From Anaerovibrio sp. (lineage in GTDB: Bacteria > Bacillota > Negativicutes > Selenomonadales > Selenomonadaceae): a DNA stretch of 54,744 nt. A model generated the notes under the pieces. That model did not search any database and was not told the origin of the DNA. It worked only from the letters and a program-made list of their open reading frames with translations. The stretch's first letter is position 1. Each line of letters begins with the position of its first letter. This document shows positions 35,774 to 54,744 of this stretch, piece after piece. The position numbers were made by a program, and so were the translations under genes. The stretch is taken from NCBI GenBank assembly GCA_051866255.1, contig JBJDWY010000043.1, forward strand, positions 1-54,744. The letters run 5' to 3'.

Positions 35774-35877
35774 ATCTAACACACTCCTTATACGCCGCAA
35801 TGAAGCTGTTGTAATAAATATGCCACGAATATAAACTGCTTGCAGAAATAACAAATTATCATATTAGCAGGAACTGA

Positions 35878-36022
35878 GGGGAGGCATATATATCCCCCAA
35901 GAAAACCCTTGTTGCGCCTCGTTACTTCATTCATCAGAGCCGCAGGCGATAGATGAATGTTAGTAACGCGAGGCACAACTAGGAGCGAGAGCGAGTTTTC
36001 GTGGGGATATATATGCCTCCCC
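35878..36022 (+). repeat. Intergenic rod-shaped palindromic element, copy A
   Basis: Perfect 20-bp terminal inverted repeat GGGGAGGCATATATATCCCC with nested stems. Shares motifs with the element at 54343-54674. Confidence 0.85.
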
Positions 36023-36038
36023 GCCGAACCTTGTCGCA

Positions 36039-48453: not shown

Positions 48454-49484
48454 TCCGGCAGCCTCCCTTCGTACAAATCAGGATAAAGCCCTCCTGCCAT
48501 CCGGCAAATTCCATCATAAGTTCTAGTCGCACTACCGTACACCATATATAACGGAATCACATATATGCGCCTGCCGCGAATGGCGGCCACTCCCTGCAGG
48601 GCAGGATTTGCCAGCATATCTGCCGCTATTTCATCCGCATACCGGTACATGGACTCGCTGACTACCAGGAAAATTACCTCCGGATCTGCCTCAATAAGCT
48701 GCTCATAACTGGCAGAGCTGCCCAATGCCACCAGTTCCCCGTTGACATGGCGCAGAATATCACCAGCCAGGGAATTTTCACCATAAACCAAAAACTGCAT
48801 CCCCTGCTTCTCCAGAATTGCCGTGCGTGGCTTTGGCTGTCCCCTGGTATTGGACTGCACAAAATCGATTTCCTGGCGCATACGGGCCACCAGGCCTTCT
48901 GCCTGTGCCTCCCGGCCAAAAATACGCCCAAAATCAAGGATATAATTATACTCATCCTCTATGCGGCGCACCTGTCCCCTGCCAATGGAGGAATATGGCA
49001 TATAGGTGCGTATGCCCCGTCCCTGCCAGAATTCTGTCGTTTTCGTCACTCGCTCCGTAAAGGTGGAGGCCCAGCCTGCAATCAGCTCAGGTTCCAGCAT
49101 GAGCATATTTTCCACTCCCGGCATCTCCATCTGTCGCACAGGAATCTTTCTGTACGCCTCCCTGTATTCAGGCCGCAGGCACTCCTCAAAGGGAACACCT
49201 ACAGCGGCCACAATTCTGTCACCTGCCCCCAGCGCCAAGATGGTTTCCACATTATTCTGCCAGATAGCAACCACCCTGCGAGGCGGAGCGGCAAACACCT
49301 CCGCTACTTTTTCACCTTGGGAATTATAGTTGATTATTTCCACCCCTTTGTCTGAGGCTTCCTCTGGCATATCCTGTTCCCCGCCCCCGGCAAAAAGGCA
49401 GCCGGAGCAGACAAATACGAGCACCAAAAGCAGGCAGATAAAAATCTGCCTGCCGCCATCATATATTCTATTTAGAAAGTGCAT
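48450..49484 (-). CDS. Class III substrate-binding protein (BtuF-like)
   Basis: Hydrophobic N-terminus, PRRVVA, E.ILALG.GDRIV and EQLIEADPEVI. Confidence 0.85.
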   Translation of the reverse strand: MHFLNRIYDGGRQIFICLLLVLVFVCSGCLFAGGGEQDMPEEASDKGVEIINYNSQGEKVAEVFAAPPRRVVAIWQNNVETILALGAGDRIVAAVGVPFEECLRPEYREAYRKIPVRQMEMPGVENMLMLEPELIAGWASTFTERVTKTTEFWQGRGIRTYMPYSSIGRGQVRRIEDEYNYILDFGRIFGREAQAEGLVARMRQEIDFVQSNTRGQPKPRTAILEKQGMQFLVYGENSLAGDILRHVNGELVALGSSASYEQLIEADPEVIFLVVSESMYRYADEIAADMLANPALQGVAAIRGRRIYVIPLYMVYGSATRTYDGICRMAGGLYPDLYEGRLPE

Positions 49485-51710
49485 TTTGCCCCCAACATGA
49501 AGCTGCGCCCTGCCTCCGGCAAAGCACCCGGCCCATAAGATGCAACTGCCTTTGTCTCATAGGCAGTATTCAGCAAATTATATGCATTCAGATAGATCTT
49601 CCACTGCTTGGACAAAGTATAGCTCAGAGCCATATCCAGCGTACCGAAGCTACTGCTAGTAAAGTACCTAGTATCATTGCCGGAATAGATAGTATACGAC
49701 AAATCCCCAAACCAGCGGTCCTTGTCATAGGATACATTCAGCCTGTAGGTATTGCGCGGACGGAAAGAATTAATCAGCGCATCAGTGGTTGTTCCATCTG
49801 GATTCAAAATCACATTCTTAGCAGAGAAATTTTCTTTTACCCAGCTATAGGAAGCCCCAAATTTCCACACATCATCAAAGTCATGAGTATATCCCACATT
49901 CATGGAACGCTTAATCCGAGAGGCATTTACTGCCCTTGTCTGCCACTTGCTGGTAAGTTCATTGTAAATACTGTACCTGCCGATAGCATTGTCCATATCA
50001 GTCAGCCCAAAGTTGATTTCACCATAATCCCGCGGACTGAATTGGCGGCTGATGCCTGCGTTGTAGCTCCAGCCTGTCTCATCCTCCAGCACATCATTGG
50101 CGTATTGGCGGCTGCGGTCAAGCCCCGTTACCGGCTTGAAAATCTGGCTGGCAGAAACATATGCATTCGTAGCATCGTCAAAGTCATAGCTGGAATACAG
50201 GGAAGCCGTCAGCCTGCTGCTTCCCGGTACATTATTGCCATTGTAGGTACCATTAGCATAATGAGTATAAATCAAGCCTGGTGTAAAGGCAAATTTCTTG
50301 CTGATCTGGATTTTATCCTGCAAGTACAAATTCCAGAGATTGCGCTCCGCATCATATCTATCGGATGAATCCCAGCCATCATAGCTGTCCTGCCTGTATT
50401 CAAAGCCGCCTGTCAGGCTGTGCCTACCAATATGCCGGGCAAGCTGCACCGCGCCGCCCACTGAACGCTCAATGTCCGTATGAGCATTAACTTTATCCTT
50501 GGCTGCAGCAATAAATTCATGCAAATTTGTCCACGGTACATTCCAGATACTGGAATAATCCTTCATATCATAGCGTGTGTAATTGCTGTACAGGCGCACA
50601 TAGCTTTCCGCATCCTCGTCTGTTTTGTCAAACACATACTTTGCAGATACGTTGTTTGTCAGGGTTTCGCCATAGGAGCCCAGTATGGCATCATACAAGA
50701 ATATATTGCGATAGCCTGGATAGCTGCTGCTCAAGCCTGTATAGCGATGATATTTACTAGAAGCAGGGTCATTATCAATCGCAGCCATCGTGCCATTGTA
50801 AAAATCTTCCATATAACGATAGTTCGGTGCCGTTATCGGATAATGGGCTTTTTCATAGGCGTGGGTGAAATTCAGGGAAATGCTGCGCTTGTCATCCAGC
50901 TGCTTCTTGATGTTGATGGCAGCATTGTCCTTGTCGTAGCTGGTATTTCGGAATTTCTCTGTATTGCCGGTGTAATCATCCTTGTATTTGGTATCACCGC
51001 TCTGCTCGTGGCTTAAAGAGAAGGAATACTCCAGCGTCCCTTCATCAGCAGTGCCGGTATGAGTCAGTGCCATACGGTGATGATCCCAAGAACCTGTTGC
51101 CAGATCCAGGGTAGTGCGCGGTTCCTTGCTGCCCCGCCTGGTGGTGATGGAAATAACGCCACCTGCCGCATTGGCACCATAAATAGCCGCACCGCTTCCC
51201 TTGATGACCTCTATCTGCTCTATATTGTCAATCCCCGGCAGGGTGGCCAGATTGACACTTGCCTTGCTTCCGGCAAATGCACTGGCATCATTGCTTATTC
51301 TGTTGCCATCTACCACGACCACGATGTTGTTTTCACCATTGATGGATAATTCACTGCTAAAACTATCGTAGCCATACTCACCGCCATGATAGCCCGGGGT
51401 GGCAATGCGTACACCTGGCACACGCTTAAGTGCCTCAGCTACATCAGCGTAATTGTGCTTTTCAATATCTTCCCTGGTAATAACATTCACATCACCGCCG
51501 GTAGTATAGGGGTTGCGGACGATATTGCCCCCCCCGAACAATTGTATCATCAAAAGTATATACATCCAGATTTTCCTCCTGCTGCGCCTCGGAAGCATTT
51601 TCCCTGACCTCTGCTTCCTCCGCCCAAGCATGAGAGCTCCCCATCAGCATACATGCCACTGTCAATGACAGCATCTTCCTGCGCTTTCCACTAACCATTT
51701 TCATCAGCAT
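49472..51710 (-). pseudogene. TonB-dependent outer-membrane receptor (BtuB-like), split by one extra base at a G8 tract
   Basis: Signal-peptide ORF 51492-51710 and plug/barrel ORF 49472-51631 (VITREDIE..ALKRVPGV, IEQIEVIKGSGAAIYGANAAGGVISI, C-terminal F) differ in frame by 1 nt at C8 51528-51535. Could be phase variation or a sequencing error. Confidence 0.8.
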
Positions 51711-52188: not shown

Positions 52189-52257
52189 CCCTGTATCGTC
52201 AATCTCCTTCCCATCGCTCGTGGGTACAGCAGGGATCACTCCCTGCCAACGGTGATT

Positions 52258-52440
52258 CATGATCGGCAGTTCTCCTGGCTTAGGTTCATCATATCAACGC
52301 GCCTTCCCGGGACGTGCCCAGTGACCTAACTAATGCGTCATACTCCCCTTACAGTGGCGGGACCGCTCCGGACTCACACCGGTATTCCCTATTAAACCTT
52401 GCAACAAAAGCACTTCGCTGCAAAGGTACCGCTCACGATA
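52258..52440 (-). ncRNA. Cobalamin (B12) riboswitch
   Basis: AATAGGGAATACCGGTG..AGTCCGG.GCGGTCCCGCCACTGT..GTCACTG..GGGAAGG..AGCCAGGAGAACTGCC (B12 box). Confidence 0.93.
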
Positions 52441-52465
52441 TATTAAATTTCAAATCCGATTTTAT

Positions 52466-52516: not shown

Positions 52517-54238
52517 TTACTGCAGCAGGCTCAGAACCCCGGAGCTGTTCTGGTTTGCCTGAGCCAGCATAGACTGCGCCGCCTGCAGCAGCACATTGTT
52601 CTTGGTGTATTCTGTCATTTCCTTGGCCATATCCGCATCACGGATGACAGACTCTGCACTGACGGTGTTTTCGCTGGCGGTAGTCAGATTTGCCTGAGTA
52701 TATTTCAGCCTGCTTTCAATGGCGCCTATGTTGGTCTGCTGGTCAAGCACCTTTTCAATGGCATTGTCAAGGATGGTCATTGCCTGCTTTGCCTTGACAC
52801 GGGTACCCACGCTGAGATTTGTACCATTGTCCGCCTTCAGCCCCAGTCCTTCGGCACTGATGCTGCCAAAGGCGGAATTGATTACCTGATTGGCCCTGGT
52901 GCCAACCTGGAATTTCAGCCCTTCACCCTTCTGGAAATCAGGCCACTTGACGGTCAGGCCGTTTATAAGGGTTGAGTTGGCACTCGGATAATACCAGAAT
53001 TTGGTATTCAGGCCTTCCAGTACAGTGCCTTTATCATCACGCACCTCTCCCTGATTGGCATCCGCGCCAAGAATGGAGCCCACATCAGGGTTATCCAGGT
53101 CTATGCCGCATTTATCCAGCAGAAAGGCCTTTGTATTCCCTGCTGCCGTCTTAGCCCCATTGAAAGAATCTATCATATTCTGCAATGTACTAAACCTGCC
53201 GCCAGTAGCGGACTGCACCGCCTTATCCACATTTCCTTCATACTGTACCAGCCCCTGCATAAAGGATTGTACACTGCCACTGCCGCATTGCTTATTCATA
53301 TAGCGCAAAAAAGCATAACCACCGGCATAAGCATCCTCACCGGACAAGCCCGTTGATAAAGCTGCTAAATTTTCCAGCCTTGACCTTCTGTTATCATCTA
53401 TGCCGTGAGTAACCTCTGCAAAGCCTTCTACAATGAATAAAGGCACATTATCCATATTTTTGACATTAGCCGCCATCACAGCATGTGTAAGCTCATGGGC
53501 AATAACACGATCAAGATACTGACTGCCAGTTGATGGTGAAGAACCATTAGGATCACTCTCATCCATATCATCATAATAATGCATGTTAACAGTCAAAGTA
53601 AGCTTATCCGTCACACCGCCAACAGCTCTGTGAGTTACATACGCCAAACGGTCATTAGCTCCTTCATCCTTCAACACTACTTCCATTTCGTTGACACTGG
53701 CCCTGCCATCGGTGAAGTTAATACCATAGGCATCCTGTATCATTTCAAAGCTTGCCTTGAGCCATTCTGAATTTAATGCCTTGATGATGGTATCCTGCAC
53801 GGATTTGCTGATATCTGCCCCGCCATCAAAAATTCTTATGCCGTTAAAGGTGACATTGGCATTATCTGAAATCTGGTCAATAGCCTGGTCCATTTCCTTT
53901 TGGATGGTTGCCCTGTCAATGTCTGTATTGGTATCATTGGCAGCATTAATCGCTTTTTCCTTTAACGTTTTCAATATCTCTACTGTAGATGAGGCCGCTC
54001 CCTCTGCCGTCTGCAGCAGGCTGCCTGCATTCTGGGCATTGGCATTTGCCTGATCCAGTGCCCTGATCTGCACCCGCATTTTTTCAGATATGGAAAAACC
54101 GGAAGCATCATCAGCAGCACTGTTCAGCTTCATCCCCGAAGCAACCTTTTTCAAGCTTTTGGACAGTGCCTTGCTGTTTTTATTCATTTTATTCAATGTC
54201 TGCTTTGCAGTCATATTATTTTTTACTACCATTGCCAT
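52517..54238 (-). CDS. Flagellin with inserted gluzincin metallopeptidase domain (flagellinolysin type)
   Basis: Flagellin N- and C-termini like the 15530-16828 gene. Central DRVIAHELTH-x18-EGFAE motif. Confidence 0.9.
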   Translation of the reverse strand: MAMVVKNNMTAKQTLNKMNKNSKALSKSLKKVASGMKLNSAADDASGFSISEKMRVQIRALDQANANAQNAGSLLQTAEGAASSTVEILKTLKEKAINAANDTNTDIDRATIQKEMDQAIDQISDNANVTFNGIRIFDGGADISKSVQDTIIKALNSEWLKASFEMIQDAYGINFTDGRASVNEMEVVLKDEGANDRLAYVTHRAVGGVTDKLTLTVNMHYYDDMDESDPNGSSPSTGSQYLDRVIAHELTHAVMAANVKNMDNVPLFIVEGFAEVTHGIDDNRRSRLENLAALSTGLSGEDAYAGGYAFLRYMNKQCGSGSVQSFMQGLVQYEGNVDKAVQSATGGRFSTLQNMIDSFNGAKTAAGNTKAFLLDKCGIDLDNPDVGSILGADANQGEVRDDKGTVLEGLNTKFWYYPSANSTLINGLTVKWPDFQKGEGLKFQVGTRANQVINSAFGSISAEGLGLKADNGTNLSVGTRVKAKQAMTILDNAIEKVLDQQTNIGAIESRLKYTQANLTTASENTVSAESVIRDADMAKEMTEYTKNNVLLQAAQSMLAQANQNSSGVLSLLQ

Positions 54239-54340: not shown

Positions 54341-54342
54341 AA

Positions 54343-54674
54343 TTTCAGTTTGTCGTAGTGCTTGATCGTTACTTTGTGCACATACTGATGATGTAGTTTG
54401 ATAATTCGTGAACTCTGTTCAGACATTTAAAAGGGACAGGTAGCGGCAGTACCCATAGAAAACTCGCTCTCGCTCTTAGCACAGCCTCGCGCTTCTAAGC
54501 TCCTGCGTCGCTTACGCTCGCACTCGCTAAGAAGCGAGGCTGCACTCAAGGTTTTCTTTGGGTACATGCCGCACCTGTCCCTCTTTGTGTCTGAACAGAT
54601 ATGCACATAGTTATCAACTATACTCTGCTGTACGCTACTAAGGTAATCAATCTAACTTTACGAAAAAGCTGAAA
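54343..54674 (-). repeat. Intergenic rod-shaped palindromic element, copy B (core 54414-54599)
   Basis: TCTGTTCAGACA/TGTCTGAACAGA, a 23-bp stem with two bulges, further inner and outer imperfect stems, and an 18-nt motif identical to copy A in reverse orientation. Confidence 0.82.
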
Positions 54675-54744
54675 AGGGGGAGCCGGGAAGCTGACGAGAC
54701 CTGATACTACCAACTACTATGCAAGACAATCTGCTATTATGAGC

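Follow-up and report, generated by a model that had tools for sequence, protein, structure and literature searches.

The intergenic space at positions 35878–36022 (plus strand) of an Anaerovibrio contig holds an element that folds into a long rod and returns on the opposite strand close to the contig end (54414–54599), which raises the question of what these two copies, A and B, represent and how such an element spreads. The window analysed here is the entire contig C43 (54,744 nt) of genome G000, a 2.69-Mb assembly in 175 contigs (G, C and L numbers denote genomes, contigs and loci throughout). From the letters of the window alone, the original prediction had been an undescribed family of structured repeats that is selected on its fold, resembles single-stranded DNA (ssDNA) more than RNA and is perhaps mobilised in trans.

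As claimed, the two copies share an 18-mer, which at 35983–36000 is the exact reverse complement of 54458–54475 and, with up to two mismatches allowed, matches the window at these two places only (0 matches in 100 shuffles). Their folds likewise stand as described, with DNA folding z-scores of -11.2 for copy A and -11.7 for copy B and with the side hairpins and the apex of copy A located, and a covariance model (R1), built in part from copies A and B, matches these two alone within the window.

Copy A (35878–36022, plus strand) is a rod without a shell and lies between minus-strand genes for an LCP (LytR-CpsA-Psr) protein and an ABC-F-type ATPase. Its outer stem P1, which is locus-specific, pairs 35878–35897 with 36003–36022, and its P2, which covaries between subfamilies, pairs 35901–35906 with 35995–36000. 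The long arm P3 (35907–35982) contains a T.T region (35924–35929 / 35958–35964), a 2-nt bulge within 35964–35973 and the apex GA-GCC-GCA-GGC-GA at 35937–35949, and it is followed by a side mini-hairpin (35985–35992) of the GCGNNAGC type, a motif described in PMC13037366. Copy B (54414–54599, minus strand) has an extra outer stem (54599–54589 / 54424–54414), its P2 at 54556–54551 and its side hairpin at 54473–54466. Elsewhere in the window, a scan against Rfam gave a cobalamin riboswitch as its sole match (52248–52448, minus strand, RF00174, 102 bits); the gene that it lies upstream of encodes a TonB-dependent receptor (49472–51631).

Architecture, distribution and folded strand of the rods

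Rods are intergenic elements of 130–175 nt and consist of the outer stem P1, a short P2, a junction with the GCGNNAGC side mini-hairpin, and a long arm that carries a 2-nt bulge and a T.T mismatch and ends in a variable tip. The 18-mer has 30 exact and 57 near matches in G000, and the genome-wide search yields 79 rods once a second subfamily is counted, whose P2 differs in sequence yet pairs, so that the supposed repeat family does exist. Copy B belongs to a young, recently amplified subtype with 21 cores in 5 variants in this genome. The neighbours of the G000 rods are housekeeping and accessory genes, and no gene family recurs beside rods beyond large housekeeping ones.

Covariation is strong and supports the claim of selection on structure. 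In an alignment (A1) of 36 diverse rods chosen by hand, 23 of 29 pairs vary on both sides and 96.2% of the cells are paired, compared to none of 500 shuffles being as good and to slid partners pairing at 31–50%; since the aligned copies are kin, these figures are not probabilities and the counts are inflated. The side hairpin had belonged to the pattern by which A1 was selected, and its counts are partly set by the search patterns; the T.T columns had not. Relaxed Rfam searches with rods of several lineages gave no gathering-score match over any rod, in agreement with the claim of a family unmatched there, and the non-autonomous status of the family is supported as well. We found no description of it in the literature; a prior description is possible, ISfinder having lain outside the comparison.

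Some rods carry additional hairpins. A second hairpin family of ~140 nt sits in the 3' arms of rods (G000 contigs C79, C104 and C67; L005; L275), inserted right before the side hairpin and with a covarying outer stem of its own, and other small hairpins are inserted in rod tips at loci of G000, L005 and L275. One rod locus (L010 in G022:C32) contains three tandem side-hairpin units 79 bp apart, which tandem 3' halves at L541 and L400 resemble. In front of rods of the Schwartzia type (G148/G125 loci L189, L193, L224, L229, L238, L248 and L252) there is often a different short hairpin repeat, set off by a constant spacer of ~14 nt.

The 18-mer with its flanks also occurs in named Anaerovibrio and other Selenomonadaceae records, and its pattern is present in 8 of 24 genomes of the window's genus, six of which have 11–71 copies. 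Across the family, with 21 candidates scored in each genome, R1 matches 26 of 145 genomes; three genera show strong matches (9/9, 5/5 and 1/1) and four weak ones. With at most 150 candidates scored in each case, it matches 102 in a Schwartzia MAG, 114 in a Brotaphodocola MAG, 69 in a Roseburia MAG, 19 in G124 and 2 in a Blautia MAG, and it matches none of 149 genomes sampled across the phylum. The family of the Roseburia MAG, which from the name is Lachnospiraceae, shows the exact core pattern in 20 of 301 genomes (reversed controls zero), a count that is too low since R1 finds rods in pattern-negative genomes as well (49 in G557, 9 in G429 and 5 in G496; none in G565). In G546, all 150 scored candidates are R1 matches, so that the genome has at least 150. 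The rod core is hence patchily present in other Selenomonadaceae and in Lachnospiraceae and reaches at least 150 copies per genome. A plasmid collection contained no match for copy A and no significant match for a Lachnospiraceae rod, a phage collection gave only a 22-nt chance match for copy A, and the rod pattern occurs in one viral contig of IMG/VR.

Which strand of the rod folds is not given by folding energy, as in RNA folding the reverse strand of copy A (z = -11.7) even beats the GA strand (z = -10.8). The opposite orientation of the two copies relative to their flanking genes had been taken as an argument against a cis role in mRNA, and this argument extends genome-wide, because rods, in G000 as well as at metagenome loci, are unbiased with respect to tandem genes (11 versus 12 and 14 versus 16) and to the replication strand deduced from skew (33 versus 37 and 22 versus 30). 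Mismatches favour one folded strand: in 233 of 243 rods, 6335 Watson-Crick pairs are accompanied by 243 G.T versus 99 A.C and by 268 A.G versus 25 C.T, the A.G total including the conserved internal loop; G.T makes up ~4% of rod pairs. A GA-flanked mini-hairpin forms 68 of 180 distinct apices, the other 112 being plain or longer hairpins, and comprises 31 triloops (23 GNA) and 37 tetraloops. As the latter include 14 GNRA and 16 GNYA loops, the purine preference of RNA is absent. GCGNAGC and GCGNNAGC are extraordinarily stable as DNA and much less so as RNA (PMC13037366). In essentially all 243 rods, the side loop is compatible with GNRA and thus suits RNA too, so that it cannot decide the matter alone, and ssDNA and RNA motifs are hard to tell apart computationally (PMC5737381). 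Taken together, the loop types and the absent orientation bias favour ssDNA over RNA for the rod core and, along with the one-strand mismatches, sustain the earlier view of it as the more ssDNA-like of the two.

It appears improbable to us that the rod functions as a structured non-coding RNA, be it in trans or as part of an mRNA, in which the side loop would be of the GNRA type and the mismatch U.U. The good RNA folding, the side loop and the occurrence of rod sequence in metatranscriptome contigs would suit such an RNA; the absent orientation bias, the apex triloops and GNYA loops, the low proportion of G.T pairs and the lack of an Rfam match all speak against it. In Logan contigs, the depth of RNA runs over the repeat is far above that of the flanks, and a run of unrecorded kind has the same profile, which is compatible with copy number, and expression cannot be ranked from it.

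Shells around the rod core

In Lachnospiraceae, the rod core lies inside MITEs of 203–286 bp, which show target duplications of 9–12 bp and whose ends are those of an IS1182-like DDE element. An inner TIR motif brackets 26 of 117 distinct Lachnospiraceae and metagenome rods, as against 1 of 2519 random positions, and there are 30 rod-bearing TIR units of 206–278 bp, at least 8 of them with clear 9–12-bp duplications; further rod MITEs with TIRs are present in G620, G487, G431, G361, G429 and G557. Closed TIR pairs (n = 19, from five genomes) hold a rod at 207–211 bp in 10 cases and a degenerate rod in one, the remaining 8 being forms of 45–98 bp without a rod. TIR erosion in G123 runs from the outside inward, so that shell-less rods may be old MITEs.

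An autonomous IS with the ends of the Lachnospiraceae rod MITEs was found in L393 and G426. A DUF772 protein that the Pfam scan had detected beside a rod belongs to the IS in L393, which is inserted 11 bp past the rod foot with an 11-bp duplication and has left the rod intact; its empty allele is present in L386 and L401. The transposase is IS1182-like and, in this copy, frameshifted, its larger piece scoring 46.6 bits against a cut-off of 270 for NF033551. The TIR pattern is present in 96 of 301 genomes. The L393-type transposase is found in 27 of the 301 and in just 4 of the 20 rod-pattern-positive Lachnospiraceae, and with this query in none of 22 genomes of the window's genus and none of 5 in g12. 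The terminal regions of two inspected copies of the L393-type IS contain no rod. Thus, the possibility that the family would turn out to match an IS end holds true for the shell and not for the rod. The classical MITE shell with DDE (IS1182-like) ends is the only carrier shown. It carries other cores too, as follows from G565, with 82 TIR matches and no R1 match, and from the other core in G576. In the latter genome, a 203-bp TIR pair of the L393-type IS surrounds a different long hairpin core (L809, G576:C10). A distant relative of the L393 transposase with different ends occurs at L546–L560 (G143 and others), with 9 copies in G143.

In the window, copy B is part of a MITE-like shell (54341–54744, minus strand) with a terminal motif at 54355–54345, followed by AATT, and a degenerate inner end-like motif at 54672–54661; one end of this larger unit is at 54345 and the other lies past the contig end. 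The shell is located 107 bp upstream of a flagellin gene (52517–54238), and a tie of the B type to flagellin genes was rejected, as its neighbours are varied. An end of this type lies at most 260 nt away from 38 of the 79 rods in G000, another 39 rods are without one and 2 are cut, and AATT follows 65 of 88 such ends. TIRs are encountered for the shell type of copy B and not for copy A. In G001 and G023, shell modules are frequently joined back to back, two at a time, into doublets of ~0.8–1.05 kb, the ends of which lie at rearrangement breakpoints, and one of which truncates a gene; similar units in G011, G004 and G015 have a related but different end. A clean empty site was not found for the AAATT-ended shells, and AATT may be either target or part of the TIR. 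A transposase with AAATT-type ends was found neither in the window's genus nor in the viral contigs searched. The canonical IS1182 of the genus was discarded as a partner of the copy B shell because its ends are similar and not identical, the AATT flank is absent and no rod is nearby.

The AAATT-type end motif also brackets other hairpin families. At viral loci L575, L583, L594, L615–L619, L642 and L645–L729 it encloses GTAG-type REPs and other hairpins, and in one group of prophages it comes after the stop codon of small accessory genes, which are alternatives at one site beside a tape-measure-like gene. This suggests that the motif belongs to a general system of gut Bacillota for cassettes or insertions. 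Judged from translations, shell modules at L013 (G023:C3) and on contigs C33, C90 and C160 of G000 lie next to, or on both sides of, restriction-modification-like genes or what remains of such genes, which hints at possible cargo capture.

At the site of copy A, G007 and G008 carry a short allele that lacks a segment of approximately 35789–36037 (boundaries by eye), a short spacer is present in 17 genomes that are more distant, and another two were unjoined. G012 has the rod with the second, 140-nt hairpin inserted in it, and single P1 arms are present in G001 (right only) and G023 (left only). No target duplication was seen at this site. The single-arm alleles are compatible with deletion between short repeats, and in four further filled/empty rod pairs the ends are irregular and deletion explains them as well as insertion. 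The idea that P1 was already present at the target as a hairpin, or arose by inverted copying of the target, was rejected, as the empty alleles are without both arms.

Mobilisation of the rods

In G546, the core ends of 32 shell-less copies are 96% alike and their outer 12 nt just 56%, and the outer stems nevertheless pair within a copy at 336 of 384 positions (ungapped) versus 57% across copies. Short lineage-specific tags flank these rods on the 5' side in 29 and on the 3' side in 23 of the 32, and TIRs are absent from them as they are from 39 of the 79 rods in G000. The flanks of 164 shell-less rods have no common 4-mer and contain lineage-specific tags only; a GAAC guide tag, which is present in G546 and copy A, is not general and was dismissed.

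A linked HUH or RAYT gene, which the original prediction had named as a possible mobiliser, did not materialise. None of 42 Y1_Tnp loci contains a full rod, with one 41-nt partial match in L211, and no rod lies alongside any of 30 RAYT loci. Of 20 Lachnospiraceae genomes with rods, 1 has a RAYT gene, versus 55 of 301 overall. RAYT/IS200 was rejected as a partner, since the RAYTs found sit among other palindromes, and the same applies to IS200/IS605 ends (the hairpins at the ends of the one IS605 in G000 are unrelated, and the Y1 loci are without a rod), to GIY-YIG (13 loci, a rod at none) and to Rpn/PD-(D/E)XK proteins (19 matches in G000, linkage inconsistent). With regard to IS91, PF04986 was found in none of 5 genomes and PF14319 in one of 5 (G433), that is, absence in 9 of 10 genome searches. 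A Pfam search of 144 of the 274 non-redundant rod neighbours, picked by length, returned no HUH, reverse transcriptase or integrase domain, and one DUF772 and two Rpn-type matches. As the assemblies are mostly drafts, the absence of a mobiliser is not proven. The IS605 of G000 lies on contig C142 and consists of tnpA and a tnpB-like frame.

In our opinion, the rod is a non-coding, high-copy repeat with a core that likely folds as ssDNA and that a protein likely reads; it sits either in a shell likely moved by DDE transposases or alone, in which case another enzyme would move it. We would give this reading about an even chance. Insertion polymorphism between related genomes is shown for rods, and the Lachnospiraceae MITE shares both ends and the ~11-bp duplication with an autonomous IS1182-like element. 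DDE transposases likely move the MITE shells that hold the rod core, and the AAATT-ended shell of copy B would be a transposase-driven MITE too. The GA strand could fold while the DNA is transiently single-stranded, and the irregularities of the rod might serve as recognition marks, like the bulge in the E. coli REP. Since TnpA-REP and IS200/IS605 enzymes read conserved stem irregularities (PMC8266576), a protein-read ssDNA fold is favoured for the rod. The core presumably predates its shells and was captured more than once, given that it is found between shell ends of at least three different kinds and, in many copies, without any. The weakest steps of this reading are that shell-less copies such as A may be copied by a trans-acting enzyme that acts on the fold, and that template switching may help to hold the variable outer stems paired. 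Template switching can perfect inverted repeats without selection, and such correction has been described in bacteria (PMC5941160); it may account for part of the outer-stem pairing. More specifically, one could imagine the rod to be the substrate of an undescribed ssDNA mobiliser other than RAYT, IS200 or IS91, which reads the branched fold and leaves self-complementary outer stems, in a REP-like system that extends from Negativicutes to Clostridia and has repeatedly been captured by hairpin-seeking DDE MITEs, a scenario that we find rather doubtful.

The core could also be a passenger, in which case DDE transposases acting on the MITE ends would do all the spreading, shell-less copies would be eroded or deleted MITEs, and the fold would limit harm or help transcripts of either orientation, aided by template-switch repair. 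We entertain this tentatively as a real possibility, given the TIRs and 9–12-bp duplications around rods in many Lachnospiraceae, the near-constant size (207–211 bp) at which 10 of 19 closed TIR pairs hold a rod, the TIR erosion in G123 and the lack of an HUH partner; moreover, MITEs that lose their ends come to resemble REPs (PMC10969869). However, the many shell-less copies of G546, in which 96% identity of the cores goes along with paired outer stems unique to each copy and with tags of their own, are unlike the products of decay, the same core is found within at least three unrelated shell ends, the AAATT-type end brackets other hairpin families as well, and GNA triloops suit DNA and not transcripts.

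That the pairing is a mutational by-product of template switching and the family neutral junk is very improbable. Such repair, for which the correction of imperfect inverted repeats in bacteria (PMC5941160) and the single-arm deletions at the site of copy A could be cited, would erase the bulge, the T.T mismatch and the asymmetric side hairpin, whereas all of these persist across two bacterial classes, and the T.T columns lay outside the pattern that selected A1. Least probable of all, from our perspective, is that the rod serves the ssDNA intermediates of a mobile element as an sso/ssi-like signal for single-strand initiation or priming. Mini-hairpins similar to those of the rod are present at the phage G4 and ssiA priming sites and at the N4 promoter (PMC13037366), and the one-strand fold would be in line with this function, but the plasmid collection had no match for copy A and no significant one for a Lachnospiraceae rod, the phages yielded just the 22-nt chance match for copy A, IMG/VR a single contig with the pattern, and replication-strand bias is absent.

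Relation to known elements

The shelled Lachnospiraceae form is a MITE of an IS1182-like element and displays all general features of MITEs (PMC10969869). Like the MITEs of IS1182-clan DDE elements, its units are gene-less and intergenic, have TIRs in common with an autonomous IS and show target duplications. In contrast to them, the conserved part of the rod is the internal fold and not the ends, and its core occurs under different ends and without any. IS1272/TnSha1, which belong to the IS1182 family, target DNA secondary structure (PMC4923244), and the L393 IS lies, in one case, 11 bp from a rod foot. IS1272 deletes the stem-loop without a duplication, whereas the L393 IS duplicates 11 bp and keeps the rod.

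ERIC/IRU, RUP and Correia elements are structured MITEs, that is, intergenic repeats of ~100–250 bp with a folding core. By description rather than by sequence comparison, the rod resembles them in size and folding core (for ERIC, PMC10969869); unlike them, its hosts are gut Selenomonadaceae and Lachnospiraceae. A conserved structured core inside MITEs is therefore a known kind of element, of which the present core is a new form. Another structure to be considered is the integron attC site, of which an AAC/GTT triplet is a feature. The rod has in common with attC an ssDNA hairpin of variable sequence with extrahelical bases and a variable tip (PMC5737381). It differs in that the triplet is gone in subfamilies with other P2 sequences, that rods are dispersed in both orientations and form no cassette array, and that there is no integrase among the 144 neighbour proteins.

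With the rod, one structured core fills intergenic space, operon interiors included, in common gut Bacillota, where it breaks assemblies and marks rearrangement breakpoints. Since shelled and shell-less populations coexist, the role of the core is separable from the transposase ends, and the rod provides a test case for the question why unrelated MITE shells retain a conserved one-strand fold. If it is true that shell-less copies have an enzyme of their own, this would add a new mobiliser that recognises ssDNA.

Proteobacteria are the best-known hosts of high-copy REP-like repeats. Like the elements of the REP/REPIN/BIME-RAYT systems, rods are high-copy extragenic hairpins that often form inverted doublets, and the two further agree in a conserved stem irregularity, a patchy spread and a likely handling as ssDNA (PMC3116915, PMC8266576, PMC6006769). 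Compared to a REP, the rod is ~4 times longer, branched and devoid of a GTAG-like foot guide, and, other than REP/REPIN, it neither flanks a RAYT gene nor co-occurs with one. RAYT-like genes at L210 (G165), L211 (G125) and L212 (G148) are flanked by palindromes of their own, among them a short one beside ung and a GTAG-type REP array.
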